This document shows, piece by piece, positions 7,948 through 34,978 of a DNA stretch of 37,057 nt (its first letter is position 1; every line of letters begins with the position of its first letter). A model generated the notes under the pieces. It saw only the letters and a program-made list of their open reading frames with translations. It searched no databases and was not told the origin of the DNA. Source of the DNA: Atractiella rhizophila. Taxonomy: Eukaryota. Made by a program: the position numbers and the translations under genes. Location: NCBI GenBank assembly GCA_021432655.1, contig MU271232.1:1-37057 (forward strand). Direction: 5' to 3'.

Positions 7948-7972
7948 NNNNNNNNNNNNNNNNNNNNNNNNN
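7948..7972. other. Assembly gap (25 N)
   Basis: Run of 25 N. Confidence 1.
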
Positions 7973-11006: not shown

Positions 11007-11610
11007 NNNNNNNNNNNNNNNNNNNNNNNNNNNNNNNNNNNNNNNNNNNNNNNNNNNNNNNNNNNNNNNNNNNNNNNNNNNNNNNNNNNNNNNNNNNNNN
11101 NNNNNNNNNNNNNNNNNNNNNNNNNNNNNNNNNNNNNNNNNNNNNNNNNNNNNNNNNNNNNNNNNNNNNNNNNNNNNNNNNNNNNNNNNNNNNNNNNNNN
11201 NNNNNNNNNNNNNNNNNNNNNNNNNNNNNNNNNNNNNNNNNNNNNNNNNNNNNNNNNNNNNNNNNNNNNNNNNNNNNNNNNNNNNNNNNNNNNNNNNNNN
11301 NNNNNNNNNNNNNNNNNNNNNNNNNNNNNNNNNNNNNNNNNNNNNNNNNNNNNNNNNNNNNNNNNNNNNNNNNNNNNNNNNNNNNNNNNNNNNNNNNNNN
11401 NNNNNNNNNNNNNNNNNNNNNNNNNNNNNNNNNNNNNNNNNNNNNNNNNNNNNNNNNNNNNNNNNNNNNNNNNNNNNNNNNNNNNNNNNNNNNNNNNNNN
11501 NNNNNNNNNNNNNNNNNNNNNNNNNNNNNNNNNNNNNNNNNNNNNNNNNNNNNNNNNNNNNNNNNNNNNNNNNNNNNNNNNNNNNNNNNNNNNNNNNNNN
11601 NNNNNNNNNN
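11007..11610. other. Assembly gap (604 N)
   Basis: Run of N. Confidence 1.
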
Positions 11611-12475
11611 AACCTTACAAACCCAAGAGCTAACAGAGTACCACCGTTCTTGACCACATTTTGGATCGAACACGAAGAAAAGGAAAGCGACCGAAAATAC
11701 GATTCACCCCATATCACTGCTTCTCCTGTACAACTCTAAGAGAGGATCCCGCTCCTACAGGGGAGTACCTAGAGCACGGGGATGAGTATTGTACAGGAAG
11801 TGGACTTAAGGGTCGATAGTTTCCTGTTCTTCTTCCTACATGCAAGTCACTATTAGGGTACCGACTTATGACTCCGCTACAGTCTAAAGACCTGGACACA
11901 GTGAGGAAAGGACTCTCTTTAACCGACATTCAACCGCAAAAATAAGCTTTCCGAGAGCTTATTCGCTCCTATAGTATCAGTAACCACATGCTTAACCCCT
12001 GAAGTGCCGGGGCGCTCGGGAGGCTGAAGGAAAAGTCCCTGCTGGTTAAATACCTATATTAAAGGAGCTAGATGAAGGAGGTTGAGAGGGAAGGTATGGA
12101 GCTTGGTCGAAATGAGTCCTAGCTTGTACTTAAAGAGTTGTATAAGGGTTGGTTACGCGAAATAAAATAAAGCGAGTAGAGGTAACGAACCCGCTTGCTT
12201 TAGAAGTAGGAATTTTCAGAGGAAGTCGTTGCTCTTCGGCTATCACAGGGACTGGACCTTTTCGTCTTCTTTGAGCGGGCTCAGCGAGGTAACCATTTAG
12301 TCGATCGCAGTATACGACGTGCCAGATAGCGGATACATAAAGTACATCCGTTGAGGGCATAGTAGGACGTAGTTGTGATTAGAAAGCGGAGTATCGCTAA
12401 CGCTTTCGAACCATTTTTGAACCGAAGAAAGTGTAGGGAACGACGGTACTAGGGAGTTGAGGGGTACGAACGTGT
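11611..12475. other. Reversed-not-complemented block A (right boundary +/-10 nt)
   Basis: The complement read left to right gives introns (GTACGT..CAG, GTAAGT..TAG, GTAGGC..CTAAT..TAG) and a ~100-aa open exon (FRDDQFMDIISSIYFLQLSLPYLEPALLRIEHEF...). Confidence 0.88.
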
Positions 12476-14046
12476 AAGGAAGCGCGATGCTCGATAGGAT
12501 CATCTTTTCTCTTTGCCATGGGGTGTCAGGATGGAAGGATGGAAGCAGGGACACAACAGAAAACATACCCTGAAATCGATCGGTAAGGATTCATTCTGAT
12601 CAGTGAGGATTCGAATGTGCTCCAACATTGTCTTGCAGTAAATGCGTCCTTGGACTGCCCGATCCTCATCTACATCTGCATCAGTCCCGCTCACGAGTTC
12701 AAATACTGAAGCAGCGTACTTGTTAAGCCCTGATAAAGGAGCAAGAGGCTGGCGATACTTTCCGGGCTGGGGCTTCGAATTGTTCCTTTGGCATCTGCTA
12801 TAGCCATGGCCCGTGCAAACAACTTCCGATTAATAGCTGTACCCATCCGATGAGCTTACGTTAGTGGTTGAGGGCCGCACTTACTCCGCCTTAACTTTCC
12901 CATGTCAGAATAGGCATTCAGTGCATCCTCGCTATCCAAGGCGTCGAATTGCCCGGAAACGTTACCAGGACTATGCGGGAGAGTTTGACCCCGGAGCAGA
13001 AGAGGATGGTCAGATAGGATGGCTCCTTTCACCAAAAGAAATGCGCAAAGAACCTATCATTCATTGATTAGATAGGCAGTCCTCCTTCTCGCCAAATTTC
13101 AGACGTACTTCTTCCTGTTCTGCCATTTGATTCGGTTTTCTTCCCGCTGCCTCAAATTTGGCTCGGAAGTCTTGCCACTTTGCCAACACTTCACATTTCG
13201 TCACTCCTGCGATTCAAAATCACTTACTTCGATTGGTTGCAATTGCACCCATCCCTTCGTTAGGTGTCATCGTTAGATATCCTCGCCTGTCGGACGATCA
13301 GAACCTACATTGCTGAAATACACTGATCACATCGTGAGGACGAGCTTGAGTCACAAGCATGGAGAAGCGCACATTCCATTAAATGGAGAGCGAGGGAGCT
13401 TTCCATTTCGGAATCTCCGAGTCTGGAATTTGTCGAGCTTGGGAGGGCGTTGAGATGTCTAGGATCTTGCTTAGAGTTGTTTGACCGTTGTGACTGAGAT
13501 CCAGCTTTTCCGAACGTCGCACTTGAACCAAATTACTGAGGAGTACTCCTTGAACGCATGACCTACCGAGCTTTCGCGATAATTGAACCGTCCCTGTTCT
13601 TCCTTACAAACTACCTTATGAAAATATCGATGGAGTGAAAGCATAGCAGGCGCACCATTTTACGACGGGGGTTCACCTGCTGGAGCATCGTGCATCTAGT
13701 TGAAACATCAGAACAGTTTGTCATTTAGAATGGTGTCCATGGACGGGCACGACTACTTCGTGAACTAGGGTAACACACCTTATTCCCTTATTTAGACATT
13801 GTTTACAACTGTCATTGGTAACTGGTTCTCGAACACATTTCTGTGGACACCTTTAATCCCAACGCGAGAAAAAAAAGGTGGTACGCACGACTCTTCGCAT
13901 GCTATCAACACCAAGTCAAATCTTGAGAGAAGGGAGGTAGGGATGAGGGAAGTGGCGCACCGGCAACTATCACAACTTCTTAGTTTCTGAGTTGGTGGTG
14001 GAGAAGGGGACGAGGACGATGTGTGAGACGACGTGTGAGGGTCCAT
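11611..14046 (-). CDS. Zn2Cys6 fungal transcription factor with middle-homology-like region; part 11611-~12475 is stored reversed; 3' end probably lost in the gap
   Basis: Spliced CDSCR-MRRV-KCVREPVTNDSCKQCLNKGIR-C, including a 13-nt micro-exon at 13889-13901. ...RKDDPIEHRA(SF) at about 12480 continues as WNVWVLDCLMVARTGVKPS in the plain complement of 11611 onward. Confidence 0.8.
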
Positions 14047-15068
14047 GGCTGTTTCCTGTCAAAGCTAAATTTAACTTGAAGTTCTTGAACTCGAGTACAG
14101 TATGCTCTGTTTGTGAGAGATTACGAAAGGTGGACGGGTGTGTGCGCAAATACGCTGTTGGACAAATTTGGAAGTCTCTTATACGAGGACCGTCGGCCTT
14201 GATGTGTATTTCATAGTAAACGAGTAATTACCAAAGTAAAAGAGACAATTTGATTATGGTCGTAATAAGCAATGGTAGATGGACTCGACTTTGTCATATG
14301 ATGATCCTGTGAGCGTAGATCATGCTAGGACTGAGCTTCTCAAATTGAAATGGATGGTCGATCCTTCGGTGTTTTTGAGATTATATGTTGGACCACTATC
14401 CTTTGTTTCTGCGTAATGGTAGCACAGGTCCTAAGGTCCATAAGAACGCAATTGAGCTGCGAAGGAACACTCTTCATGACATGACAAGTAGTCTGTGGGA
14501 TGGTAAGGAAAAGCGTGACGGTGTCTATCTTAGCTAGAAAACCTTTTCTACTGCCGAAAATAGCATTTCGTCTTTTCGACAAAAGGGAGTGAAGGTAAGA
14601 GTGCCTCGGGTACAGAGCAACAGTGAGTCGTGCTTTCACAGTCGACGGCGACGACATTTTGCTGCTACGAACGTGAACCTTTGGCTCCCTGCAAAGGAGA
14701 ATCGGAGACATGAACAATGATCACTGAATGTTTACTACTTGGAGAGCCTAGACAGCATGAATCTAGGTTCTGCAACTGAGCCAGGGTAAGGATGGAGAGA
14801 AGATAAAGCACGTCGAGCAGCTCAAAGCATAGGCCACGCACCTGATCAATAACTAGATAAACCACAAAGCGCTAAATGGGCCTTCCGCTTTGCCTAACAA
14901 GTCGCTAGCACACAATTCACAAAGTCAGTGTTCGAAGTAATCAACGCGTTGAGGTGCGGTTGGCTGGATTTGGGAATAGCCCCCTGAGGTAAGTGGAGCC
15001 CCTTAGCAATCATTTGCCACCTACACCAGACATTGAGCCGAACAATCCTTATTCGAGCTGGGTCTCTA

Positions 15069-18000
15069 ATGGCGCCTTCCGAAGATTCCACGCTCTACGA
15101 ACTCGAGCTGCTCTCCCTCGTCCAGTCCATCAACCGCCAGCTGACCAACCATCTCAACCTCAACGACAGCGCCGTATCCGAGTTTCTCATCAACATCCAC
15201 GAGTCCTCCGCCTCATTCGACGACTTCAAGAACAAGCTGAAGGAAAATGGAGCCGAGTTTCCGGAGAGCTTGGTCGAGGGAGTGGACAGGTTGATCGTGG
15301 AGATGCATCCTTTGTACAAGAAGCGCAGGGCGGCTGAAGCGCAGAAGAGCAAGGAAAGGATTAGTGGGACTGGGGCTGAAGAAGATGGTGGGGACGGAAC
15401 GGACAAGAAGAAGACGAGCGAATTCTCGGCGCTCGTTCAGAAGGATACGAATTGGACTCCCTCTTTTATTCCTGACGATGCGAAGCATATTGCAGAGTCT
15501 AAGGCTCAGAAGTTCGTCGATGATTTGATGCAGGAGTTTGAGTCCATTGGTCAGCAGGCCCAGGCTTCGAAGGCTGGCGGTGGCGCAGAGAAGAGGAGGA
15601 GGAGTCGAAGTCCTGAACCGAATGCGAAGAGGAGGAGGTCGAGGTCGCCGGATTACAGTAATGGAAGAGGGAGGAGGGATGAGGATCGTGGGAGAGGGAG
15701 AGGGAGAGACAGAGATAGAGAGATGGATGAACAACCAGTGCTTTATAAGATCTACAATGGCAGGGTGACTGGTATGAAAGACTTTGGGGCTTTTGTGTCA
15801 TTAGAAGGTATTCGAGGTAGAGCCGAAGGTATGTCTTTCCTCTCTGTTTGTTGCGTGGGTGTGAAGAAGCAAAAGCTGAGTTCGTGTGTGTAGGAATGGT
15901 CCACATCTCCTCCATAATCCCCTCACGCGTCAACCACCCGTCCGACATCCTCTCCCGGAACCAAGAAGTAAAAGTAAAAGTGATGTCTATCGCAGGCAAC
16001 CGTATCGGTTTATCCATGAAAGACGTGGATCAACGAACCGGAGCGGATCTCACACCCAATCTACGAATCAAGAGCGAGAAGGAGATCGAAGACGAGCAAC
16101 GACGGCTCTACAGCACCGGATCTAATGGCGTACCGCTCGGTGGGGCTAGGGGAGGGGGTGGAGACGGGAGGGGAGTCTCCTTCGCTGATGATGACAGGAG
16201 GAGTTCAGCTAGACGCTTGACGAGTCCGGAGAGGTGGGAGATCAAACAGCTTATTGCTAGTGGAGCGGCTAAAGCGTCGGATTATCCGGAGTTGGATGAC
16301 GATCGTGATTATATGATGGCTGCTCCTAGCGGAAGGAGAGGAGGAGGAGGAGGCGGTGGTGGAGCAGATGAGTATTATGGAGCGGAGGAAGAGCTGGATA
16401 TCGAGGTCAAGGAGGAAGAAGCGCCTTTCTTACGCGGACAGACGAAGAGAGCGCTGGAGATGTCACCCGTCAAAATCATCAAGGCGCCGGATGGCACGCT
16501 CAACCGAGCCGCTCTCTCCGGGACGTCACTCGCGAAAGAAAGGCGGGAGATGCGCGCTCAAGAAGCCCAAGACCGTGCGGATTCGGAGGCGAGGGACCTC
16601 TCCTCCCCTTGGCTCGACCCGGCGGCTAAAGCGGAGGATAAGGTGTTTGCGCAGGATTTTAGGAGTGGAGCGTTGCATGGGAAGAAGGAGGAGGGGATGA
16701 GCGCTTGGAAAAATGCCACTTTCAATAAGGCGACCACGTACGGAAGGATCACTAGTCTGTCGATACAGGAACAGAGACAGAGTCTTCCCATCTATGCGTT
16801 TAGGGAACAGATCATACAGGCCGTGAAGGATCATCAGGTCCTCGTTGTTGTCGGAGACACGGGGAGTGGGAAGACGACACAGATGACGCAGTATTTGGCT
16901 GAAGCTGGATTCGGCGACTCAGGGACGATTGGGTGTACTCAGCCCCGACGAGTGGCTGCTATGAGCGTCGCGAAGAGGGTAGCTGAGGAGGTCGGATGCA
17001 GGTTGGGCCAAGAGGTGGGATATACTATTCGGTTCGACGACTGTACGAGTCCAGAGACGAAAATCAAGTATATGACGGACGGGATGTTGCAGATGGAGGC
17101 TTTGTTCGATCCGGATCTGACAAAGTATTCTGTGCTTATGCTTGATGAGGCCCATGAGAGGACCATATTCACGGATGTCATGTTTGGACTGTTGAAGAGT
17201 CCGTCTGCGCTCTCTCTTCGTCTTCTGTGAATTACTGGTGCTGATGGGATTTTGATAGAAACGCTGAAAAGGCGACCGGACTTGAAACTCATCGTTACCT
17301 CCGCCACTTTGGACGCTGCAAAGTTCTCCGAGTACTTTTACGCCTGTCCCATCTTCACCATTCCCGGTCGTACATTCCCAGTAGAGATTTTGTACACGAA
17401 AGAGCCAGAATCGGATTACCTCGACGCTGCCCTAATTACCGTCATGCAGATCCATCTCTCCGAACCCGAAGGAGACATCCTCCTCTTTCTCACAGGCAAA
17501 GAAGAAATCGATACCGCCTGCGAGATCCTCTACGAACGAATGAAGAGCCTGGGAAATTCAGTCCCCGAACTGCTAATCCTTCCCGTCTATTCTGCTCTGC
17601 CCAGTGAAACCCAGAGCAAGATCTTCGAGCCTGCTCCTCCCGGCGCTAGGAAGGTGGTCATCGCTACCAATATCGCAGAGACTAGCATCACCATCGACGG
17701 TATCTTCTACGTCGTCGATCCTGGCTTTGTGAAACAGAAGGCGTATGATCCAAGACTCGGGATGGACTCCCTTGTCGTCACTCCCATCTCGCAAGCTCAA
17801 GCTCGCCAACGCTCAGGTCGTGCTGGACGTACAGGTCCAGGGAAGTGTTATCGATTGTACACCGAGGCCGCATACAGGAACGAGATGCTCCCCAATCCCA
17901 TCCCCGATATTCTCAGAACCAACCTTTCGGCCACTATCCTCACGCTTAAAGCGATGGGCATTAACGACCTCATGAACTTTGGCTTCATGGATCCTCCTCC

Positions 18001-18994
18001 ACAGCAAACGTTGATCACTGCCCTCGAAGATCTTTACGCTCTCGGCGCATTGGACGATGAAGGATTGTTGACGCGCTTAGGGAGAAAAATGGCTGATTGG
18101 CCACTTGACCCCGCACTGGCGAAGATGATGATCTGCTCTGTGGACCTGGGTTGCTCAGAAGAAATCTTAACGATCGTGGCGATGATTTCGACACAAGGAG
18201 AAATCTTCTATCGCCCTAAAGATAAGCAAGCGCAGGCGGATGCGAAGAAAGCCAAGTTCCATCAACCTGAAGGGGACCATCTCACACTCCTTGCTGTGTA
18301 TAACGCTTGGAAGGCGAGCAAGTTTAGCAATCCGTGGTGTCATGAGAACTATATTCAGGCCAGGAGTATGAAGAGTGCGAGGGATGTCAGGAAGCAACTG
18401 TTGGGGATCATGGATCGGTATGTTCTCATGGATAATTAGATGTTGCAGTTGCTGATGTGGTTGCAGATACAAGCATGAAATCGTCTCCTGCGGCAAGAAC
18501 TACAATCGCGTCAGACGAGCACTTTGCAGTGGTTACTTCCGACATGCAGCTAAGAAAGAGTATGTCCTCATCCTCCTTTCTGTCCCGCAAAGTCCTGACC
18601 ATCATCTAGTCCTCAAGAAGGTTATAAGACACTTACAGAAGGCACTCCCGTCTTCCTTCATCCCTCCTCAGCACTGTTCAACCGTGCGCCGGAATGGTTG
18701 ATCTACCACGAACTCGTCCTCACAACTCGAGAATACATGCGTGCGGTCACCGCCATTGAGCCTCAATGGCTTGCCGAGTGTGCTCCCCGGTTCTTCAAGG
18801 TTGCAGACAGTTCCAAACTCTCGAAGAGGAAGAAACAAGAAAAGTACGTTCCCTCCGTCATCTAGCCCAAAACTAGTTCGGCTTACAGTGGTTGTAGGAT
18901 TGCGCCGTTGTGGGATCGGTTTGCGAAATCTCAGGACGATTGGAGATTGTCGAAACTCAAAAGGTCTACCAGGACCAGTCAGACTTTTGGCTAG
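15069..18994 (+). CDS. PRP22: Pre-mRNA splicing DEAH-box helicase Prp22/DHX8
   Basis: S1 domain ([13 protein letters not shown]), [49 protein letters not shown], and C-terminal [13 protein letters not shown]...TSQTFG*. Confidence 0.97.
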
Positions 18995-19230
18995 TGTTGT
19001 TGTCGTTTATACCTGGATCTTACAATATCATGCTTCTTATTTGCTACGCCAGTCCCTGTCCTCCTCAACAGCCTGTCCATACCTTTCCCAACTTTTTCAT
19101 CGAGCCATCGATGCGTCGTTTTACTCGAAATCCTCTCGCTCTTGGAACAATGCGACAAAACGCGTGTTAAAAAGCACGTCGATTATTTGTATTATCTAGG
19201 GGCAGACTATTCCACTTGGTCTTTTTGTTC

Positions 19231-19551
19231 AGTCCATCTTCTTCACACATCAAAAGGCGTCAGCAAGAAGAGTCCGTCAAAATGATGGCTCCAGAAGAAA
19301 GTCGAAGTACATCCAACCAACTGGAATGGAATGGTGTATGTATGTAGTTGTAGTTAGAGTCCATTGAGCGTCCTTGACGAAGAAAGCGTCCTTGAACTAC
19401 GACTACCACTTTAACGGAATGAGTTTGAAAGAACAGAAGTCAGCGTCCTTGACTTTGAAAGCGTAGCGTCCCTTTGGTAGGCGATGTTTTACATCAAGAG
19501 AGTCCATGAAAGTCCATGAAGCTTTTTGCGAACAAGCAAACAGAAATGTCC
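19231..19551. repeat. Cluster of GTCC-core motifs (AGCGTCCTTGA x3; AGTCCATGAA tandem x2)
   Basis: AGCGTCCTTGA at 19367, 19385, 19442; AGCGTCCCT at 19465; AGTCC at 19231, 19271, 19358, 19501, 19511; GTCC at 19548. Confidence 0.75.
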
Positions 19552-19751
19552 TTCAAGCCCATCTTTGATGTTTTGGAAACTGTCAAGAAGAATCGAATCA
19601 AGAATCAGAAGGAAAGCAGCAGAAAACAACGATGTGTGATGGAGAATGAAGGGGTGTTCACGGCTTAGAACGAAGTAGGAGTAGGCATACTAACTTGAAA
19701 ACGTTGTTAACTGAAACTTGAAGTTGCGGATGAAAATGCGAAACCAACTTC

Positions 19752-20731
19752 CTACATCGAGTGAGTGTAATATTTGGACAACAATTCTAGATCTTCATTA
19801 GACAAGTTGCCACTTGAAGTTTGAGAAGCGATCCAACTCCAATCTATCGCCTGTGGCTGATGTTGTTGGAGTTGTTGGAGCAGCTGCTGCTGAAGGGCGG
19901 GATCGTGGAAATTGATCGAAGGAGTATTAGAACTAAAAGTCGAGACTGGAAGCGCCTCGCCTGGTCCTGCCGGTCTCTGAAAATGTGAAGGAACGTCTGG
20001 CATCGGTTGACCTCCGAATCCACCGACGCCAACATGTTGGCTGGAGAGAAATTGTCCGGAAGCGTTCGGATATGGGTAAACTAGCGACTCGTTGTTGCTG
20101 CCATGTTGGCCGAGCAGGTTCGCGGCATCCCACGGTGATGTGGGAGAGGCGGACGAAGGAGAGGATTGCTGAGACATGCTTGTTGATCCGTGGAAGGGGG
20201 ACTGGCGTGTTGGATCGGCGGAAGCGACGGCCATAGCGTTCGAAACGATGTTCTCCAAAAATGCTATACTCATCGCCACGTCAGCCCTATTCCAATCATG
20301 GTGCGAACAGAGACTTACCCAATCGTTGCGACAATTCCTCGATGCGCTTGTCATCCTCATCGTCCTGCGAAGACCTCCCACTCTTGGCACCCTTCCCCTT
20401 CGCCTTCCCTTTACCTCCTCGAGAACCCGAGGCAGGAGGACTGTTGCTACTCCTTGAGGCCGAATTAGGATTTGGCGGGGTCATGGACGAGGGAGAGGAG
20501 ATCGGGATGTATTCGCAATTGACAGCGTCCGGGGACAAGTTATGGGACTGAGCATGGCGGACGCAGTTGCCACAAACAGGTCTTGTCATCTGCGAAGCAG
20601 TCAGCGGAACGGTGGAGGAGAAGAGATAGGAGGGAACTGACATCGCATCGGATCTTTTTGACTCGGCAATTGACACATGCTAGTTTGGCAGTGATGAGCA
20701 GGTGCGAAGGCACTCTCGAACCCAAGTCCAT
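19752..20731 (-). CDS. Short Zn2Cys6 transcription factor with Ser/Gln-rich tail (start may be 20818), 2 introns
   Basis: ACVNCRVKKIRCD|MTRPVCGNCVRHAQSHNLSPDAVNCEY, followed by a coiled coil (KRIEELSQRL-AFLENIV) and a Q-rich region. Confidence 0.88.
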
Positions 20732-21401
20732 TGTACCGTTGGAAGTAGGGACGGTCGTGGTGTAAGGACTGTTGAGGAGATGAGGCAGGACGGTCGGTTG
20801 AATGGCGACAAGTTGCATCGAAGTCGACGACGTTTGACTCGGAACGAATGTTTAAAGTACTGATATTTTACGGTAGAAACGACAGTCTGCCGACGCTCCT
20901 TGATTAGCGAAAAGGAAAGAGTGTGGAACGAAAAATTTAACACACTAGACTAGAAAGAAAAGCGAAGAGCCTCCACGCCTCGGCTCTGACTCGTGACTTC
21001 GCTTCCTCTTGTGAATGGGAGTTCTTTGAGGGCTCTTGGGCGAGAAAAGAGAAGTAATAAGATATAGAGAGGAAGATGGTCAAAGAACTTTCATGCCCGA
21101 TTTCTGATTCCCACGAGAACGAGAACTTGGAAAGCGTGAGCCTCAGAAGCTTGGGGATGGGATGAGGTGATATATGTATGTCGGCGGTTGGACGAGACTA
21201 GCGTCGTATTCCCTCCAAAACGCCTTTCGAGCACGCTTCTTCAATGTTTGACCAAGTCTGAAGAAAGCGAAAGGCTGTGCGGCCAAAGATCCGAGAAACC
21301 GTACAACTCGTTTTCACTTTCAGCCTGCTCTCGCCGTCAAGGAAATGCCGAACCTGGTTATATTTGTATCCTCTTGTTTATCTCTCCTGTTCTTCTCTGT
21401 T

Positions 21402-24189: not shown

Positions 24190-24214
24190 NNNNNNNNNNN
24201 NNNNNNNNNNNNNN
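24190..24214. other. Assembly gap (25 N) between the mirror arms
   Basis: Run of 25 N. Confidence 1.
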
Positions 24215-24832
24215 AATGTTACGGTGTCAAGCTCGGAGGTTAGGATCAACTAATGGATGCAAGCTATGGACGCAATCCTAGTCCTTAATGAAGCGATCTG
24301 AAAGTCCAAAACAACGCGGCTCAAGTAGTGTTGTCTTGTACCGTGAGTAGCCCACAACATGGGTGCGATGGAACAAAACGGCCTTGAGCTTGGAAATTGC
24401 ATGCCGCTGGTCCTCGTGCTCATTCGATTCAGTTTGATTCGTGCTAAACGCGAACTGGCAGACGGACCGAAGAATTTTACCAGGTCAACCAACACGTTTT
24501 GGATTTGAATAATGATACTGTTTGGAAGGATGTCGAAAGTGTAGTGTTGTTGAGTTACCAGCTGAGTTCCTCCGAGAACGAAATGAACCATGGAGGTTTG
24601 GATTTGCGGTTGTTGGGGAAGAACTCCGCGCAATTGTGGCGAAAGTCTTTGTGAGGACGGTTGGACAGTGAGAGGCGACGTGAGTGGGAATACATTCATT
24701 TAGGCCAGTAGTGTTCCCGTTGTGCAACAACATTCATTTACTGTATTCCTAAGTGATTGATCGGGAAGGGAAACTGTAATGGGAGTGCGGAGGGGCGACT
24801 CATTAGATGAGCTGTAAAGGAGTTGGAACAAG

Positions 24833-26363
24833 TCACGCATCTTTCAGCCTCGCCTTCTCCTTCTCATCCAAAACACGATGTGCCATGCTCTCCCCCTGCC
24901 CATCCTTCTTTCCACCAGCCACATAAGCCTCTATTGCAATCCCAGCGAAAACCAAAGTGACACCACCCCACTGTCCTGCAGAGAGATCGTGATGGTATAT
25001 GAAAACGCTGAGAATCATGGTGAACAGTTTTCGGAGGACGGTTATGGTCACAAGCGTCAAGGAGCCGAAGTTTGCGAGGGTGAGGAAGATGAAGATTTGT
25101 CCGAGCGCGCCGAAGAGGGAGAAAAGGAGGAGGTCGCGCAGGACAGAAGGGTATTTTTGAATGAACTCTAACGCAACCCAAAACTGGTTGGAAGAGCTGG
25201 AGGTCGAGGGTGGAGAGAGGATGGGGATTGAAGGGAAGGGGATGAAGAGAGATGAGGTGGTGAGAAAGGTCGAGAAGAGGTTCATCCAGAACATCATCTG
25301 TGTTCCGTTGATCGTCGGGAAGAGCTTGAAGATCTCGTCCTGGGTCGAATTGACGGATCCATCGATGATTAGATTGATGAGGAGCAAAATGATTCCCAAT
25401 AATGACGACGATTCCACTCCTTTTCGCTTCTCTCCAGTCCCATGCTGCTCGCCCATCAACATGAAAACACTTATTCCGCTCGTCACGATCGCGACCACAG
25501 CGTACTTATGGGCTGCGAATTTGCGTCGGTAGAGGATGATGTTCATGAGCATGACAGGGATGAGTTTGCAGCTCTTCCCGAGGATCATGGTCGGGAAAGA
25601 AATGTATCGTAAACTGGCGAATCCAAAGATAGGTCCAATCGATTGAAGAATGGAGACTTTTAGAATGTGACCAAGGAAGTTGAAGGGATATCGCTGGAAC
25701 CAATACTTGTTTTGCGATTCTTCTAGCGTCAATGTGAATTGTTGAACGTTCTTAGGGAAAGAAAGGAAAGTCGAAGGCGTCTCCAAGTCTTTCTGTCCGC
25801 CGTGCATCCTGGTAAATTCCTGCTCACCAGTCGCATTTGAAAGGAAGCCTCCATCCACCTCGGATTTCGTCTTCTTCCTCTCGAAAAGCGGCGATCGAGG
25901 AACTTGAGAAGCAATGTCGGATTTATTCGACAAACCGGTCGATGGGAGTCCCAGAAGCTCCCATATATTCTGGGATGAATGCTTGAAGCTTGCGAGGTAC
26001 AAAAGAGCGGCTATGCAACAGAAAGTTGATTGGATGCTGTTGAGGAAGACCACCGCGCGAAAGTACTCTGGAGGCTCGCCCGGTGGAGCATATGATGTCG
26101 TGGATACTATTCGATGCATCAGCTTCGTATCAGTGCAGCGAGCGAATATGGAAGGGAAAGGAGCAGTTGGCAATGAGGTCAGAAGGCTTTCATAGGCCGA
26201 TTTCTGGGGGACCAGCCTTTCGTACGGCACGCACAACATAAAGCAAACAGGGTGCTTGACTTGATAGTCAAAAAGAGGACGTACTTCGCTCTTGCAACAG
26301 AGCCCACAAAAGGAAGGACCCATAGATTCCAGACACGCAAATAGCTAGTTTTGCGAGTGTCAT
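24833..26363 (-). CDS. HUT1: UDP-galactose transporter homolog (UAA/SLC35B1 family)
   Basis: Exon 1 MTLAKLAICVSGIYGSFLLWALLQER (26363-26285); intron 26284-26107; then ISFPTMILGKSCKLIPVM, DGSVNSTQDEIF, GALGQIFIFLTL..FGSLTLVTITVLRK. Confidence 0.93.
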
Positions 26364-26826
26364 CGCGGTTGCTCCTCACAGCGGAATCGACGGCCAGCCA
26401 CTACAAAAGAGAATAGGGATCCGCTAGGACACCTTTAGCTACTTAAGAAGGGAGAATCGCGATGAATACTCCGTAATAAATTCTGTGGCTGAAAACCAAG
26501 GCGTCGGGTTTTCAAGGTGCCACGTGTCGCAGCAAAATTCCAACATAGGAGGTCAAGATGTTGATAAGGTTTGCTGCTGCATTTTGGAAGGTTGGCTGCG
26601 TTGCTTGAACGCTTTGACCTATCCATCTTTGCACTTTTAGCTCTGTCTTGCTGCTGGAGCTCAGCATCTGCTCAAATTTGGTACTCCTGCTGCCAGTATG
26701 CGAACAGCGCAACAGCTTGTTCTATAAATTGCAAGCTGGACTAGTCTCGGAAACCGCGAGGCCGTAGGTCTCCAGGTCGGAGTTCCCTTTCTTTAAAGAC
26801 TTCCTCCAGAGATTTTCGCCAAAGAT

Positions 26827-28397
26827 ATGCCCGTCGGAGGAAGGCGAAAAGTTTTGCTGTTTTTCCTTGCATTGGGAGGATTTTGGGTCTACTTCCGGTG
26901 GCCTTCTTCGTTCAATTCATCGTTCTTTCGGACTAATTCATCCGCGTCACCCGAAAGCGACGATGAACAAACGAACGGGGATCCCAGGAGACCATTTCAG
27001 CCTTTCCCTCTTCATCGACCCCTTCGGAGCGGTGAAAAATACCTTTCTTACTTGCCCCACTCCCAATTCCATAATCAACGAACGATACTCCAAAACGCTC
27101 TCTCCTTAGCATTATACCTGAATCGAACCCTGCTCCTTCCTCCTATATGGGTAGGAGAAGGAGGTCCACCTCGTTCGGGATACGATGTCCTGCGAAAGGC
27201 TTGGGAGGATCGAATACAAGGGGATGTTTTGTTTCAACAGGGTAACTCGAAGATGGAGAAAGCAAAGAGAACGGGGAGCACCTTCATCGCTTTTGACGAG
27301 GTTTTTGATCTGAAAGCGCTTGAAGAGGAGACTGGAGTCAAGCTCGCTAACCGGTGGTGGGGCGATGGCACTGGGGAACGAGCTGGCATGACGGAAGAGG
27401 GAGCCAGGTTGGACGCTGGGGGTATTGGGGAGGACGACGTTGTATGGCGCTTATCTGACTGATGCTTGTTATTGATTTCACTCTTCCGTAGTATTATGTG
27501 AAGGAGAGTTCGAAAGACGAGCTCCAGTTCACAACCCATCTCCCATCCACCGACCTCACTGTCCCTTTTCCTCCGTGGCAGCGCACCGGCGTCAATAAAT
27601 ACCAGACGTCTTTCTCCTTGCAAGCCTTGCGAAAGCGCCCGGAATCTCTTATCCTCTTCGGCTCGCTCTTTGGCAGTGGACGCCTCAACCTCTCCGACTC
27701 GGATGGGGTTTTTAAGCCCAGCTGGTTCGAGAAGCGGCTGATTCTGCGGAACAACGCTGTGTCCCACATCTCCCAACTCATCGCTTCAGCCTTAGAGGAG
27801 GTATCTCGCCAACAAGGATACTATGCTGTTCTGGCGAGAGTGGGAGATGGAATATTTGCGAAGAAGACGGAAGAATACATGGATAACCTTTTCACTCGAA
27901 TCGTGACCTTAATCTTGGTGGAGGAAGGAAGGGAAAGCGCGGCAGAAGAAGTGCTCCTTCGTTTGCGGAAGCTGACAGAGGAACCGAAGCGACTGTCTAA
28001 GCAGCTTCAGGTAGTTAACAGAGACGAAAGTGGTGGAATTCGTCACTGTAACTACCCTCTCCATACAGATCCAGCGCTTCATGTCTTCAACGCACCTCTC
28101 TACATGGCAACAGATTCCCGATCGCCAAAAACCGATCCAAACCTCTTCAAATTCTTTCGAGCTTTCCCATGCACGTTTACATTGGGAGATTGGGATGGAA
28201 TGAATGTTGGGATAGCTGAATTGGCTGCTTGGAAAAACGTTGATGGAGAAAAATTGGGTGGTTTCTTCATCCCCATGTTAGATTCGATGGTAGCTGCGAG
28301 GGGGAAAATTGCAATTGGAACGCAGGGAAGCAGCTATGGTGATTATGTCGAAAAAGTATTACATCCTGCTGTTGGTGCAAAGCATCCTCTAACTTGA
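26827..28397 (+). CDS. Type II membrane O-fucosyltransferase-like (GT-B fold) glycosyltransferase, 1 intron (27442-27491)
   Basis: N-terminal TM anchor; EKYLSYLPHSQFHNQR...NAL..A.YLNRTLLLPP; FGSLFGSGRL; RVGDG; LYMATD; FPCTFTL; GTQGSSYG. Confidence 0.75.
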
Positions 28398-28940
28398 ATT
28401 CTCACGCTCGTGTCTGACGTCTGACACGCTGTATTGAAAACACTCAATGATGCCCTATTGACAATTGCAGCCAGGAGAGCTACATGACTCCTCTTGATTC
28501 GACGAGGCATATATTGAGCCCAACACCCATGTCCTTCGTTCCCCTGAAACGTGAAGGACCTTGAAGAATGGCAGCTACTACGCATACCGAACCTCAGCTA
28601 GATGATGATGAAAGTCAAGGTTCATGTCTAAAATTTGCGGCTCAATCAAATCTTGCTATCATAGGGATGTCCTGAGACTACTTGCTGCAAATGTAACGCA
28701 GCGTGTTATTGACGCTCCAGGTTTCAAGCGAGTCTGAAGGTGCAAACAAGGTCAACCTGTTGCATTAGCGTTGCGCTAACATGCGCCGACCTGCGCCCCT
28801 TAAAAGCTTTGCGAACCTGTTGGCGAAATCTTCCCCCAACCTCAAGAAAAGCCCTATCGTCGCTACAGGACTTCTTCTCGAGCCTTATAAACCCCAGCAC
28901 AGAACCATCCTCGCCTGGAACTCTGTAATTTAAAGCAAAA

Positions 28941-30877
28941 ATGAGAGAAGTCATCTCGTGAGTCCCAAGTTTGATTTTTGATGAGAACGGTTGATCTCGT
29001 CGAGATCTTTCTCCTGCTGCTCCACAGCACACTTGGAGGACGCTCTTGAACTAACTTATGCTTTATCTGAATTGAAACTGACGTGTTTGAACGGGAAACA
29101 GTGTTCGTAAGTTGGCATGGCATCACTTGAATCCAACCACTCATTCACAACACTAGACGTTGGTCAGGCCGGTTGCCAGCTTGGTAATGCCTGTGAGCCG
29201 ATCTCCATATCCATGACTGCAAAATCATAACCGTGACCCGCTAAGGCTGGGAACTCTACACCCTTGAGCACGGACTTTCCGCGGATGGAAGGCTCAAGGA
29301 CCAGTCTGCCTCCACTGAAGGATTCTCCACCTTCTTCTCCGAGACTGGAGCCGGAAAATTCGTGCCTAGGAGTATCTACGTCGATCTAGAACCTAACGTT
29401 GTGTTCGTCTTTCCTCATTCTAGTAACTTCAAGTTGTTGACGCGTAGTGGATAGTGATGAGGTCAGGACTGGTACCTACAGGTCCCTCTTCCACCCAGAG
29501 ACGCTCGTCACTGGCAAGGAGGACGCGGCCAACAACTACGCTCGCGGTCACTACACCGTCGGAAAGGAGTTGATTGATACCGTCCTTGACAGGCTCAGGA
29601 GATTGGCTGATGCTTGTACTGGACTTCAAGTAGGCCTTCCAGTTCTTAAATCGCAAATTCGAAGTGCTGATGACGACTTGATAAGGGATTCTTCGTGTTC
29701 CACTCCTTCGGCGGTGGAACTGGATCTGGTTTCGGTGCCCTCTTGTTGGAAAGGTTATCCACCGATTACGGCAAGAAGAGCAAGCTCGAGTTTGCGTACG
29801 CCTTAACCGCCTCACCCTTGATATTTCCCTGCTGATAGGGAATTGCGATTAGTATCTACCCCGCTCCTAAAATGTCGAACTCGGTTGTTGAGCCCTACAA
29901 CTCAGTCTTGACCACTCACACCACCCTCGAACACGTTGACTGCTCCTTCATGGTCGACAACGAGGCCATCTACGACATCTGCAGGAAGAACTTGGGCATT
30001 GTCAGCCCCGGCTATGTCAACTTGAACAGGCTTATCGCTCAAGTAATTGGCCTTTCCGTCACTATTACTCCTGCTCACGATAACTATTGCAATAGGTTGT
30101 GTCCAGCATCACCGCGTCCCTTCGTTTCGATGGTGCTCTGAACGTCGACCTGAACGAGTTCCAGACCAACTTGGTGCCTTTCCCCCGTATCCACTTCCCT
30201 CTCGTTACCTACGCGCCGATCATCAGTCGTGACAAGGCACAACACGAGCAGAACAGTGTGGCCGAAATGACCTACGCTTGCTTCGAGCCCAACAACCAGA
30301 TGGTCAAGTGCGATCCTAGACAAGGGAAGTACATGGCTTGTGCCCTCCTTTTCAGGGGTGATGTCGTCCCCAAGGATGCCAACTCGGCCGTCGCCTCCAT
30401 CAAGACGAAGAGGACCATCCAGTTCGTCGACTGGTGCCCCACCGGATTCAAGGTGAAACTCTGCCCATTCTCTCTTATCCTCTCGGTGATTGTTGTGATT
30501 GACCTCCGGTGCCATGGAACAGCTCGGTATCTGCGCTGAGAAGCCCGCTATCGTCCCCGATGGAGATCTCGCCCCCGTCAGCAGGTCCCTCTGCATGTTG
30601 TCCAACACGACCGCCATCGCCGCTGCTTGGAGCAGGTTGGACAACAAGTTCGACCTCCTCTATTCCAAGAGGGCCTTTGTTCACTGGTACGTCGGTGAGG
30701 GAATGGAAGAGGGTGAATTCTCGGAGGCGAGGGAGGACTTGGCTGCTCTCGAGAAGGGTTCGTATTTCATGGTTCTTCTTGACCAGTACATCATACTGAT
30801 TCGATTGGATCAATATAGATTACGAGGAGGTTGGGATGGAGAATGCTGACGAGGAGGAAGGAGCCGTTGAGTACTAA
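28941..30877 (+). CDS. TUB1: Alpha-tubulin, many introns, including a 5-nt micro-exon at 29102-29106
   Basis: Spliced [24 protein letters not shown]..., [56 protein letters not shown]...EEEGAVEY*. Confidence 0.98.
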
Positions 30878-31125
30878 ACATGGGTTGGAATGTCTTGCGA
30901 CCTTTCTCGAACTTCGAGTGAAATGAACATGACTTTTCCTTAATTCTTGGCCGCTTGACCCTGCCTTGATCATCATAGAGGGCTGGCACCAAAGGGCGAT
31001 CCGATCGAATGATCGCAGGTGGGCCACAGCAAATAAAGGCAAGCAATTGACAAACCTGCCAGTGCAACGTCCAACATCGATCAGGCCGTCGCTTGTCTTG
31101 CTAGCGATTGCCTGTCCAGCACTCC

Positions 31126-32447
31126 ATGGCGCCAACCAACGAAGACCTCCGCTTATACGCTCTCTACTGTTTTGACGTCCTCCATTCCCGTCTCACTTCC
31201 TCCACATCCCCATCGCCCAGATCCCTCCCCGGTTACAAAGACGAATACCCCTTGTTTGTTACTTGGAACATCACCAGCAGCACCAGTAGGAGCGTACGCC
31301 TCAGAGGTTGCATTGGAAACTTTGAGAAGTTGAGGTTGGGCGACGGCCTGGCAGAATATGCTATCATTAGGTGAGGTCATTGTTCTTTATCTGGTGTGGG
31401 CAAGTAGAGAGTGGTGCTGATGGATGCTTGGTTCCTTTACATGTTGTATCTTGGCTTGTCTTTTGTTGACTGTGTTGCTTCGACCGTCAAACGAGAGTAG
31501 CGCCTTCAAAGACCGTCGTTTCAACCCCATCACCTCCCGGGAGCTCTCCCGCCTTGAATGCGGGTACGCTCTTCCTTCTTCCATTCCGTGATCCTTCATG
31601 TATCTTGCATTACTGACATGAGGAGTGGAACAGCATCTCGCTCCTAACAAAGTTTGAGCCGGCCTCTAACTACCTCGACTGGACCATCGGCGTGCATGGG
31701 ATTTACATCAGCTTTCCGAACCCTGAACTGCGGGGATATACCGTCTCCTCCACTTCGGAAGGAGAGGAGGAGGAAGATGATCCGATATCCGAGAACGATT
31801 TGACGAGCGAAGGCGAAATCGAGGTCGACGACACCGAAGAGGAAACCACTATACCTGTTCTCATGCCAACTGTGTTGGAGAAACAGGTAGATACCCCAGG
31901 ATCAGGTTCAGGTTCCAGCTCCACTGCCACCCCTTCGTCGTCCAGTGACTTGTTCTCCCCTCCTGACGCCGGATCAACTACTTCCCTGAATACCCCTACT
32001 CTCACGCGGCCGCCATCGACTGACTCTTCCTCTCGTGCTTCCAGCTCAAAAGTCAAATCACCCTCACTTCTTCGCTCCCATCTTTCCTCTCTGCTCAAAT
32101 CTCAATCTCACAAAACTCAAACACAAACCCAATCCCAATCTAAAGTCAAAAGTCACTCAACCCCAGTCCTGCCCCCACCAAAAGAAGAAAAGGAATACTC
32201 CCTCTCTGACCTCCTCCCGCACGGCTACGGTAACTTGAGCGCAACCTACCTACCGGATGTTGCGAAAGAACAAGAGTGGACGAAGATAGAGACGCTCGAT
32301 TCGTTGATGCGGAAGGCGGGTTGGGATGGAGAGATCACGGAGAGGATGAGGAGAGGGGTGAAGGTTGTGAGGTACCAGTGCTTGAAGGGCGGAGTGGCAT
32401 ATGGAGAGTGGAAGAGGTGGAGAGGTGAAATGGGAAAGAGTGTTTGA
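31126..32447 (+). CDS. AMMECR1: AMMECR1-family protein with a long acidic, Ser/Thr-rich insertion, 2 introns
   Basis: YCFDVL, YPLFVTW, LRGCIGNF, SAFKDRRFNPI, DWTIGVHGIYISF, SATYLPDVAKEQEWTKIETLDSLMRKAGW, VVRYQ. Confidence 0.92.
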
Positions 32448-32628
32448 GGAAATTCGGTGGAACAAGGTAGTTTTTGGGCCGTGAACTTCGAAATTCTTTG
32501 CCAGGACTGTTTGTCGTCTGCTCGACTTGTTGTTGTACTAATCAATGGAACGTAGAATGAAATACAATGTTAGATTACATATGTACCACACTGATTACAC
32601 CTGTTAATGAGATGTGCATAGGAGAGCG

Positions 32629-33011
32629 TTAGGAAGGTAATTGGACTCCCACACTCTCCTCTTTAACCTTCAGAGTGTTCTGCTCCATTGTACCTTTTAC
32701 AGGCTCAGCAAAACTACCTGATTCAAGGGAAAGAAGACGTACTCCAAGGCCGTCGATCCATAGGACACTGATTCTTCGAATTGGGACTATTAAGCCACTT
32801 TAAGAGACAATGCATATGAAAGACATGGGTGCATTCTCCCCAAACTATCCCACGTCATGAATGCTCAGCAAATAGTCTAAAGGCAAGAAAAGGCAAGAAA
32901 CTTACTGAGAGGACAATCGTCTCCTGGCACCTTACAGTCCGAGCAACAACCATCAAACGCGATCCTGCAAATTCCACACACGTCCTCCTCCTCATCGTCC
33001 CCGTCTTCAGC
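32629..33011 (-). CDS. APC11: APC/C subunit 11 RING-H2, 3' part (last exon and stop uncertain)
   Basis: [44 protein letters not shown]...CPMDRRPW. Confidence 0.93.
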
Positions 33012-34367
33012 GGCGGGCGGAGGAAGAAGTTTAGAGCGTGGACGCCTCGTCGCCTTTACCACCGACAGCGTCTTTAGTATCCACCTCCCCCGACCTAGTG
33101 TCCACCCCCCGGCTTAACAAAGACGCAGCCTAAGCCACCACATCCCTCGCCCACACCGACTCTCCTCCTCCTCCGCCTCCGCCTCCGCAGACCATAGCTG
33201 TAACCTAATACTCCACGCAACTTTGGCCCTCCCCCTCCTCCCTTTCTTCCAGCCTGCCCCTCCAGCACACCACCAGCACCCCTCCCTTGCTACCCGCTCC
33301 ACCATCTCTCACTCCGCCTCCGCCGTACCCGTACGGAACAACACTACCCTTCATCTGACCTCCACGCCAGTACACACTCCCTTTGCCTCGCCCACCATTC
33401 ATGACTCCTACGTACCCTTGCACCACGCCGTAGACGTAGACGTACCGCCGTAACCTCCTCCCTTCACGACAACAACAACCACTACAACTCCTAACCCGAC
33501 CCCTACTGCCTGCGAACCCGCCAACTTCTCACCAACACCACTCGGACATTTACGTAGTCTATGTTAACGTCGCTATGTTTCATTCCATCTCTTGCGTGGT
33601 AGTAGACAGAACTTAGCAAATCCCCCTCCACCCGGCAGTCCCTCTCCCTATAGCAGCAGTCTCAGAAGGAGAAGAAAGACACCACCACCACCTGGTCCTC
33701 CTTCTCCCTACAGCAGGAGTAGCGAGAGTAGCGGAAGTCCGAGTAGGAGTAGGAGTGGCAGTAGTAGAAGGCGTAGGCGATGTGGCACGGCAGTAATGGG
33801 TAGCAGACCGTTCTTTCTATCTTTCTGTCTGCGTGCGGAAAGTTCCATTCCGTAAGGACCACCACCTTGGGGTATACCTAACATCTGCCCTAGTATTATT
33901 TGCGAGAAAAACCCTAAGTGGTCGCAAGGTAGGAAGAACTTCTATAAGGAGAGCGGTGGGAAGGAGACGCGCGAGAGGTGGACAAGGAAGTTTAAACTGA
34001 ATATTAGAGGGACACGGACAGGTCCGAAGAATTACTAAAATAGGGAGAGGAGGCCTACGAGGAAGTTTATTAGAAGGAAGCGAAACGACTAGAAGAAGTG
34101 AAGGCGGAACTCGAGAAAGTGGAGAAATAGGACGCAGCCTCACGCCCTTCCCTCCCGCTCCTCCCGCAGCTACGCGAAAACCTCTAGCCTACCCAGAAAG
34201 AACCGCAGGAAACTTCGAACTCTGAAGACTGCGCGAAGAAATAAGAAGAAGTCGAGGAAGACGGCGACTCGGAAGGGACGCCACTTTATCATAGTCGCGT
34301 TTCGTTTCACTCCGTTTCGTTTGCGTGCCATCCGCAGGTACCCTAAACTCCCGAACAAGAAGGGGTA
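33012..34367. CDS. WBP11: WW domain-binding protein 11 (WBP11/Saf1) splicing factor, stored reversed (would be + strand after correction); ATG at 34367-34365
   Basis: Reverse reading: MGKNKPSNPMDAYR|KAQRQKELKKNKEARQK...EDYLKEHPEER...KSVYYDPVYNPYGVPPPGMPY...DDIPLPPGPPP...ATISAAPQVRDLKKEA, with three GTGCGT..AG introns (first 34327-34277). Confidence 0.92.
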
Positions 34368-34593
34368 TAACCCACAGCAAACGAGATCTCTGCGAGCCCT
34401 ATCAACCATAGAGAAACGTCCCGAGATGCGAACGGTCACATCTCTGGAAAGGATCCGCCCGCCTATTCCTATAGTAAGCGGTGTGCACGTGATTGTCTGT
34501 TTTGTGATTTATGTGCGAGGTCACCTCCTAGCTCTAATGCTCATCCCCTTGTTAATTCCCTGCTGGAACTCGACCTTAACCCTGCTCCTCTGC

Positions 34594-34689
34594 TACTTCC
34601 AGTTCTAGTTCCGCATGGTGGGCTAGCGCCAGACCAGGACCTTGGATTTCGTCTTAGTTGGAAACTTGCGAGTCCGCTGTCCCTTGCTC
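34594..34689. CDS. APC11: APC11 N-terminal 32 codons, readable as the plain complement left to right
   Basis: Complement = ATG AAG GTC AAG ATC...: MKVKIKAYHPIAVWSWNLKQNQPLNAQATGNE, in frame with [16 protein letters not shown] starting at 33011. Confidence 0.93.
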
Positions 34690-34891
34690 NNNNNNNNNNN
34701 NNNNNNNNNNNNNNNNNNNNNNNNNNNNNNNNNNNNNNNNNNNNNNNNNNNNNNNNNNNNNNNNNNNNNNNNNNNNNNNNNNNNNNNNNNNNNNNNNNNN
34801 NNNNNNNNNNNNNNNNNNNNNNNNNNNNNNNNNNNNNNNNNNNNNNNNNNNNNNNNNNNNNNNNNNNNNNNNNNNNNNNNNNNNNNNNNNN
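34690..34891. other. Assembly gap (202 N)
   Basis: Run of N. Confidence 1.
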
Positions 34892-34978
34892 CAGGTGACG
34901 AAGAGGAAAGGGGAGATGGAGATGGTGAAGGATGAATATGAGAGCTTCTTGGAGGAGCTGAATGGGATGGAGAAGTGA
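34892..34978 (+). CDS. WBP11: Probable C-terminus of WBP11, in normal orientation
   Basis: VKDEYESFLEELNGMEK* resembles the WBP11 terminal D-Y-x-x-F-x-x-E motif and lies where the corrected gene would end. Confidence 0.7.
   Translation, partial: QVTKRKGEMEMVKDEYESFLEELNGMEK

Follow-up and report, generated by a model that had tools for sequence, protein, structure and literature searches.

Three gap-adjoining blocks of an Atractiella rhizophila scaffold are reversed without complementation, very probably by software

A scaffold of Atractiella rhizophila (assembly GCA_021432655.1, contig MU271232.1) raises the question of whether the sequence that has been deposited is the sequence that the organism carries. 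Within the stretch analysed here, positions 1 to 37,057 of the contig and referred to below as the window, a first-pass annotation made from the letters alone had described three kilobase-scale blocks, each touching a run of N, as reversed without being complemented. The answer that emerges is that the native sequence is each of these three blocks, A, B and C (Table 1), reversed in place. The blocks themselves are almost certainly software artefacts of the deposited record and not the DNA of the organism. For blocks B and C, both the junctions to the base and the arrangement of the native sequence have been shown, whilst mirror copy, contig overhangs, homologues and polarity agree that the three blocks are reversed without complement. 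The three blocks amount to 5337 bp, which is 14.4% of the window, in keeping with the first estimate of about 5.3 kb and roughly 14%. Each adjoins an N-gap, as had been claimed, A starting at 11611, B ending at 24189 and C ending at 34689.

Table 1. Reversed blocks, gaps and the genes that they affect, in window coordinates as deposited.
Feature	Position	Length	Strand	Description
Gap 1	7948-7972	25 N		Both flanks forward-like; no reversed block
Gap 2	11007-11610	604 N		Block A on its right side
Block A	11611-12481	871 bp		Reversed without complement; starts at the edge of gap 2
Zn2Cys6-type paralogue, 5' part, correctly written	12482-13986		minus	From tblastn of P0100, P0101 and P0102
Block B	21402-24189	2788 bp		Reversed without complement; ends at the edge of gap 3
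Block B, mirror arm	21402-24013	2612 bp		24215-26826 written backwards
HUT1 frame written backwards	21884-23395			As-given position; inside the mirror arm of block B
Block B, unique part	24014-24189	176 bp		True 21401-to-24215 sequence written backwards
Gap 3	24190-24214	25 N		Spanned by block B; no sequence truly missing
Native partner of block B	24215-26826			Contains the HUT1/UAA locus; X1, X2 and X3 contigs cover from 24215 onwards
HUT1/UAA nucleotide-sugar transporter frame	24833-26344		minus	Pfam PF08449, 1.5e-42
APC11, correctly written part	32726-33011		minus	Exon 32907-33011 (residues 33-67), intron, exon 32726-32848
Block C	33012-34689	1678 bp		Reversed without complement; ends at the edge of gap 4
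APC11 from its start codon to codon 32	34594-34689			In reversed letters where block C meets gap 4
Gap 4	34690-34891	202 N		Real remaining gap

Block B can be recognised from the window itself. When the window was reversed, left uncomplemented and compared with the original by blastn, a single match was obtained, which joins 21399-24013 to 24215-26829 at 99.885% identity over 2615 columns (E = 0). An ordinary self-blastn of the window on both strands returned no copy of block B, and only a 32-bp repeat. A letter-level comparison places the start of the mirror at 21402 and finds 2610 of 2612 positions identical, the two mismatches falling at 21484 and 23035. The suggestion that this block reproduces the adjacent HUT1 locus is thereby borne out, as is the placement of its left edge. 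At 23035 the block carries a G. The X1 and X2 contigs introduced below also have G at 25193, its counterpart in the native partner, although the window itself shows A there. This shared allele indicates that block B was therefore built from reads and was not copied from the neighbouring contig.

The junctions of blocks B and C were compared with contigs assembled from public runs independently of this assembly (X1, X2 and X3), over a range of 16001-36000. X1 and X2 come from one sample, which may be the assembly's own source, making them independent of the assembly software and not of the biological material. X3 carries another organism label and has spliced, RNA-like joints; its letters bear on the C junction only. 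These contigs depart from the window at 21402, 24215 and 33011/33012, and the letters with which they continue are those of the blocks read backwards from the gap end. Thus the overhang behind 21402 (25 nt) equals 24188->24164 and that before 24215 (30 nt of 173 compared) equals 24043->24014, both with 0 mismatches, while those behind 33011/33012 in X1, X2 and X3 equal 34689/34688->34660/34659 with 0-1 mismatches. In all, three overhangs of 25-30 nt have no mismatch and a fourth has one; as-given, reverse-complement or complement-only readings each give at least 8. The junction in its in-place-reversed form is thus present in independent data for B (X1/X2) and for C (X1/X2 and X3), as the first-pass annotation had expected of sequence data. 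Since 25-30 letters were compared per overhang, support for the interior of B and C comes from mirror copy, homology and polarity. In all four runs, bins 22004-24004 and 33343-34676 had a depth of 0 and the flanks were covered; the uncovered parts are not taken as evidence.

At block C the reversed letters complete a conserved gene. The correctly written part of APC11 has Pfam matches to zf-ANAPC11 (6.5e-13 and 1.1e-16). The 107-aa APC11 of Atractiella rhizophila at NCBI (P0001) aligns by tblastn to the window as given from residue 33 and stops exactly at 33011, whereas after in-place reversal of the block its residues 1-67 align at 100%, at corrected positions 33107..32907. APC11 homologues behave in the same way, 94 of 99 reaching past 33011 after reversal as against 4 of 99 as given. 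The reversed block therefore joins its neighbour as proposed, meeting the APC11 gene at exactly 33011/33012. The transcript-like X3 contig, which has a joint 32844->32906 (CT..AC) with the APC11 intron removed, continues beyond 33012 in the reversed-back form. Read backwards, block C also holds a pair of long frames on the plus strand, at as-given 33798-34292 and 33372-33791, which by eye look WBP11-like, a candidate label only.

Block A likewise joins its neighbour once reversed, here a gene for a Zn2Cys6-type paralogue continuing across 12481/12482. P0101, a 642-aa paralogue carrying PF00172, aligns to the window as given over residues 16-284. After reversal of the block, residues 125-386 and 385-514/516 align with 66% identity and 194-196 bits, a colinear gain of about 230 residues that extends up to the gap edge; the stretch matching residues 385-516 when read backwards is as-given 12033-12479. 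The matches of P0101 and of the APC11 proteins by tblastn thus uphold the expectation that reversed blocks A and C would find homologues. The right edge of block A had been placed at about 12475, and this is corrected to 12481, where a gapless scan of the junction gave 21/30 identities as against 9 or fewer at 44 other positions tried, and which coincides with the k-mer change point given below. The tblastn HSP score was ambiguous on this edge, the gapped HSPs spanning introns. For the minus-strand frame 12500-12829, a search among 1.84 billion representatives together with a near-length search recovered only its own model, P0100, its paralogues coming solely from a search for longer proteins; metagenome contigs scanned with the 32 nt to the right of the junction gave 0 matches.

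A measure of polarity that makes no use of homology agrees with these assignments. A strand-symmetric 4-mer statistic contrasting forward with reversed reading was trained with the blocks held out, the mirror partner of block B being likewise excluded for the score of that block. Per 300 bp, blocks A, B and C score -24.4, -22.3 and -21.0 respectively, against a mean of +18.3 in 100 trusted bins (sd 11.9, minimum -12.3, 6 below 0), and the held-out log-likelihood ratio (LLR) is -70.5 for A and -117.7 for C. Change points fall at 12481 (A), 21486 (B) and 33008 (C), that of B lying 84 bp away from the exact mirror start. Reading frames tell the same story: as given, A, B and C contain stop-to-stop frames of at most 82, 120 and 168 aa, and once reversed of up to 133, 503 and 255 aa. 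Pfam gave no match at E <= 0.01 for any of 17 as-given frames within the blocks, on both strands, and the description of the blocks as senseless in all six frames is accordingly sustained. Open frames across the junctions did not discriminate between the as-given and the reversed form. All three blocks thus match authentic sequence solely when read backwards and uncomplemented, and each has a contig end on one side and an N-run on the other, with a base-exact join to the contig after reversal (33011/33012, 12481 and 21402).

Reversal is a property of some gap flanks in the window and not of others. Three of the eight flanks are written backwards, the remaining five being forward-like by 4-mer polarity; these include both flanks of gap 1 (left +17.1, right +22.1) and the left flank of gap 2 (10707-11006, +22.6). 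On the right of gap 4, the 49-letter overhang of X1/X2 before 34892 found no match in the window in any of four readings, the best having 8 mismatches.

The interpretation of the blocks as a software artefact has gained support, all three of its predictions that were put to test having held. The likely course of events would be that contig ends were extended into scaffold gaps and the extensions written letter-reversed with the complement omitted, so that only one half of the reverse-complement operation was applied. At block B, where the mechanism is clearest, a 2788-bp extension from 21401 would have crossed a real gap of 176 bp and continued for 2612 bp within the next contig. Backwards writing would have made this overlap unrecognisable, which would explain why gap 3 was left at 25 N and why the HUT1 locus is present twice. 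The responsible step appears to have been a read-based gap extender. PBJelly can be put forward tentatively as the particular program, by analogy with the output that it terms overfilled gaps. In its description, a gap is defined as at least 25 N, and overfilled gaps are those with extensions longer than the predicted gap size and no identifiable overlap, attributed to scaffolding errors, inversions and misjudged gap sizes (English et al. 2012, PMC3504050). Gap 3 has the features of this class, an over-long extension (2788 bp for a real 176 bp), an overlap that went unrecognised and 25 N retained, but differs from it in that the passages describing the class make no mention of extensions written in reverse (PMC3504050). 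A literature search at the level of listings and abstracts found no account of such a backwards-writing bug, and no assembly method or gap-closing program for Atractiella rhizophila.

An alternative, also within software, would have the blocks begin as separate contigs or patches in minus orientation, which were reversed uncomplemented when the scaffold FASTA was built, whether from an AGP-like layout or in a file conversion. Such an origin predicts recovery of the native sequence by in-place reversal equally well, and all blocks do lie at component boundaries adjoining gaps. However, they abut their neighbours without N or overlap and base-exactly after reversal (33011, 12481), which is expected of a contig-end extension but would be unusual had each block been assembled as a contig of its own, and the 2612-bp overlap and different allele of block B fit a read-derived overshoot. 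It is a very improbable account.

Ordinary inversions, whether real rearrangements or common misassemblies, are the usual form of an orientation error, and there is a resemblance in that the error does not reach beyond a block adjoining a gap or the edge of a contig and that genes are broken at the junction. No support was found for them beyond this. The blocks are reversed only and code on neither strand, so that, unlike for an inversion misassembly, six-frame searches and read mapping fail. Read as reverse complements, they show 8-12 mismatches per 25-30 nt at every overhang, as against 0-1 when reversed only; the self-blastn, which covered both strands, lacked a copy of block B, and the block frames lacked Pfam matches. 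A true inversion was rejected, since by self-blastn and overhangs alike the blocks do not correspond to the native sequence in reverse-complement form, and this class of explanation is extremely improbable.

That the native chromosome truly carries kilobase-scale mirror sequence, reversed and uncomplemented, is stated by the deposited record alone and has a vanishingly small probability, for the public-run contigs have the in-place-reversed arrangement at the B and C junctions, contradicting the record much as the first-pass annotation had foreseen, X3, lacking the APC11 intron, passes 33012 in the reversed-back form, and no known process inverts polarity. It is well established that 5'-3' polarity is preserved in replication, recombination, transposition and reverse transcription alike, and because these processes do so no natural one is known that would produce a reversed uncomplemented copy. 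Known natural mirror repeats and H-DNA tracts are short and homopurine-homopyrimidine. Block B shares with them a same-strand symmetry about a centre, but its arm is 2612 bp long, of mixed sequence (54.4% purine, longest purine run 22) and has a whole gene inside. Membership of this class was rejected on the purine content and on the absence of the mirror arrangement from the independent contigs.

The value of this finding lies in data quality; no new biology is implied. As deposited, about 14% of the window is unreadable, and HUT1 is falsely duplicated with its second copy in unreadable form. APC11 is without codons 1 to 32, its start among them, and the NCBI model P0017 is labelled 'partial'. 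P0100 (186 aa) follows part of the Zn2Cys6-type gene and then takes its last ~25 residues from the reversed DNA 12474-12400; it is an NCBI model with a false C-terminus, in which the gene is cut to 186 aa. At least one further predicted gene is hidden within block C.

With three of eight gap flanks affected in the window, the whole assembly therefore merits a scan. There is a reasonable likelihood that the fault is systematic, with a sizeable share of the assembly's gap flanks, and perhaps those of other assemblies from the same pipeline version, carrying backwards kilobase blocks. In that event real genes would be hidden, and false duplications and truncated or chimeric models, of which P0017 and P0100 are instances in this window, would have entered public protein databases. 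Checks for ordinary inversion, which seek reverse-complement matches, miss such blocks, while the 4-mer polarity statistic and a reversed self-alignment would detect them cheaply in any assembly.

Three stretches of the window, blocks A (11611-12481), B (21402-24189) and C (33012-34689), are written reversed without complementation, as the first-pass annotation had proposed, and this is borne out by mirror alignment, polarity, frame lengths and Pfam searches. When the window reversed without complementing was aligned to the window as given (blastn-type self-alignment), a single match was returned, pairing 21399-24013 with 24215-26829 at 99.885% identity over 2615 columns. Ordinary self-comparison on both strands returned only a 32-bp repeat near position 500. 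Base by base, the mirror starts at 21402, position 21401 being a mismatch, and 2610 of 2612 bases agree with 24215-26826, in keeping with the claim that block B reproduces the HUT1 locus. Positions 24014-24189, the final 176 bp of the block, lack a mirror partner in the window.

A homologue-free polarity statistic gives the same picture. This strand-symmetric 4-mer log-ratio, comparing each k-mer with its letter-reversal, was trained on window sequence outside the three blocks; for scoring block B, its partner sequence was omitted as well. Polarity per 300 bp was -24.4 in A, -22.3 in B and -21.0 in C, against a mean of +18.3 (sd 11.9) in 100 trusted 300-bp bins, six of which were negative (minimum -12.3); the remaining five of the eight gap flanks scored +16 to +23. 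Cumulative-sum change points fell at 12481, 21486 (84 bp away from the exact start of block B) and 33008. The longest stop-to-stop frame measured 82 aa in A, 120 in B and 168 in C as given, growing on reversal to 133, 503 and 255 aa, and none of the 17 as-given frames within the blocks had a Pfam match at E <= 0.01.

Native order was read from Logan contigs, which were assembled independently of the deposited assembly, although X1 and X2 may still be its source sample. A search of public sequencing runs gave X1 and X2 (shares 0.84 and 0.82, one sample) and X3 (0.56, another organism label), further runs being weaker. Contigs of X1, X2, X3 and X5 were aligned to 16001-36000, which covers the junctions of B and C, that of A lying outside. 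Contigs ended at 21402 and 33011/33012 and started at 24215 and 34892, all with overhanging letters, and these were searched in the window under as-given, reversed-only, reverse-complement and complement-only readings. For the four overhangs tabulated, the best matches under the other three readings always had at least 8 mismatches. Thus at block B position 21401 is natively followed by 24189, descending as far as 24014, and this in turn by 24215; at block C, 33011 is followed by 34689 and descending positions. Alignments reach 21402, one base past 21401, since T occupies 21402 as well as 24189. The overhang before 34892 matched nowhere in the window under the four readings, and gap 4 is therefore a real gap. 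Joints in X3 are spliced (e.g. 17198->17259, GT..AG), and an X3 contig with the APC11 intron removed (32844->32906, CT..AC) continues past 33012; the reversed-back form is therefore also present in transcript-like contigs.

Gaps, trusted genes and contig overhangs in the window
Feature	Position	Strand	Detail
Gap 1	7948-7972		25 N
Gap 2	11007-11610		604 N
Gap 3	24190-24214		25 N
Gap 4	34690-34891		202 N
DEAH helicase	15821-18439	+	trusted part
HUT1/UAA transporter	24833-26344	-	trusted part
AMMECR1	31617-32447	+	trusted part
APC11 RING-H2 gene	32726-33011	-	trusted part
Overhang behind 21402 (X1/X2), 25 letters	24188->24164		reversed-only, 0 mismatches
Overhang before 24215 (X1/X2), 30 letters	24043->24014		reversed-only, 0 mismatches
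Overhang behind 33012 (X1 and X3), 30 letters	34688->34659		reversed-only, 0 mismatches
Overhang behind 33011 (X2), 30 letters	34689->34660		reversed-only, 1 mismatch

The trusted parts of the window hold eukaryotic genes with introns, and reversal of A and C does join neighbouring genes, as had been claimed. NCBI gives the name Atractiella rhizophila to proteins that match frames of the window at 100% identity. APC11 homologues were collected with the as-given frame 32877-33113(-) as query. P0001, a 107-aa APC11 protein that NCBI names Atractiella rhizophila, aligned to the as-given window from residue 33 only, stopping exactly at 33011, whereas its residues 1-67 matched at 100% across that point once block C was reversed in place (corrected 33107..32907). 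Homologues reaching more than 15 nt beyond 33011 numbered 94 of 99 after reversal versus 4 of 99 as given, and after reversal the end point was the shared start codon in 77 of them. The NCBI model P0017 (71 aa, 'partial'), from a contig of 131,755 bp, is a truncated version of APC11. Reversed block C also contains two long plus-strand frames, which by eye may be WBP11-like.

At block A, the flanking frame 12500-12829(-) had no relatives among 1.84 billion representatives beyond the NCBI model P0100 (186 aa), whose contig is likewise 131,755 bp long. A search for longer proteins gave two paralogues, P0101 (642 aa, Zn2Cys6 PF00172) and P0102 (446 aa). Residues 16-284 of P0101 aligned to the as-given window; with block A reversed, it ran colinearly on the minus strand across 12481, residues 125-386 then 385-514/516, to the gap edge at 11613 (66% identity, 194-196 bits). 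Gapless 30-residue junction comparison over 45 candidate edges gave 21 identities at 12481 and at most 9 elsewhere. The left edge first placed at 11611 stands, and the right edge moves from about 12475 to 12481, where paralogue comparison and k-mer change point coincide. The C-terminal ~25 residues of P0100 are artefactual, because they match only the backwards DNA at 12474-12400. To the left of gap 2 (10230-11006), nothing matched the C-terminal ~125 residues of P0101 (515-642) at E <= 1, and by sequence comparison the missing end of the Zn2Cys6-type gene probably sits within that 604-N gap. P0100 ('hypothetical protein', 12400-13270, -) lacks most of this ~500-640-aa paralogue gene.

The blocks are an artefact of the record and no biological feature. 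As deposited, 5337 bp (14.4%) of the window are unreadable, matching the earlier estimate of about 5.3 kb and 14%; of the window's eight gap flanks, three carry such a block, and the damage reaches two or more public protein models. The first suggestion, that software wrote fill sequence backwards, stands and is supported by the reversed-only matches of the B and C overhangs. A sequence E would become rev(E) if opposite-strand sequence were complemented but left unreversed, or alternatively if correct sequence were needlessly reversed. The evidence points to a read-based gap extender, since every block joins a single contig end to the exact base and faces an N-run, and block B extends 2612 bp beyond the true 176-bp gap without having been merged. 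Position 23035 in block B is G, as in X1/X2 contigs, whereas its partner 25193 in the neighbouring contig is A; block B was therefore built from reads, not copied from that contig. Reversal of separate minus-oriented contigs during scaffolding would account for the reversal itself, but explains the seamless joins less well, and likewise the difference in allele. Native DNA truly carrying mirror sequence is contradicted by the independent contigs, and the block B arm (54.4% purine, longest purine run 22) is unlike natural mirror repeats, judged by their known properties. Ordinary inversion is excluded by both-strand self-comparison and by the poor reverse-complement overhang matches.

The gap extender may have been PBJelly, a tentative attribution made by analogy. 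The paper on that program (PMC3504050) defines a gap as at least 25 N and calls 'overfilled' those gaps in which the extension is longer than the predicted size and the overlap unidentifiable, and gap 3 looks exactly like such a gap. Literature searches gave no record that PBJelly, or any particular version of it, had been applied to this assembly.

Some minor observations concern the rest of the window. Bin 301-600, away from gaps and alone among the trusted bins in being strongly negative (polarity -12.3), contains a 32-bp direct repeat (473-504 and 535-566, 96.9% identity), and its negative polarity probably reflects low-complexity sequence, not a further reversed piece. Bin 14401-14700, another of the six negative bins, is a lone reversed-like 300 bp (-9.7) adjoining no gap and lying outside the 16001-36000 span of the contig alignments, probably by chance. 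Within 16001-36000, X1/X2 sequence departs from that of the window at numerous positions: 25 of 59 and 40 of 104 contig pieces are only 95-99% alike, and there are small indels at about 28600-28815. The pattern suggests two haplotypes (perhaps a dikaryon) or a strain difference, and the additional loose ends seen at 28721, 29154 and 35743 could mark breaks between haplotypes. Transcript-like X3/X5 contigs supply introns of the DEAH helicase (e.g. 17198->17259, 18416->18466), of a minus-strand gene (20263->20319) and of genes at 29.2-31.6 kb. Over 17198-20319 and 29192-32906 these are GT..AG or CT..AC and 49-130 nt long, and can serve in re-annotation; the joint 29795->29854, which lies beside a GT..AG joint at 29795->29853, is listed as GT..GT.
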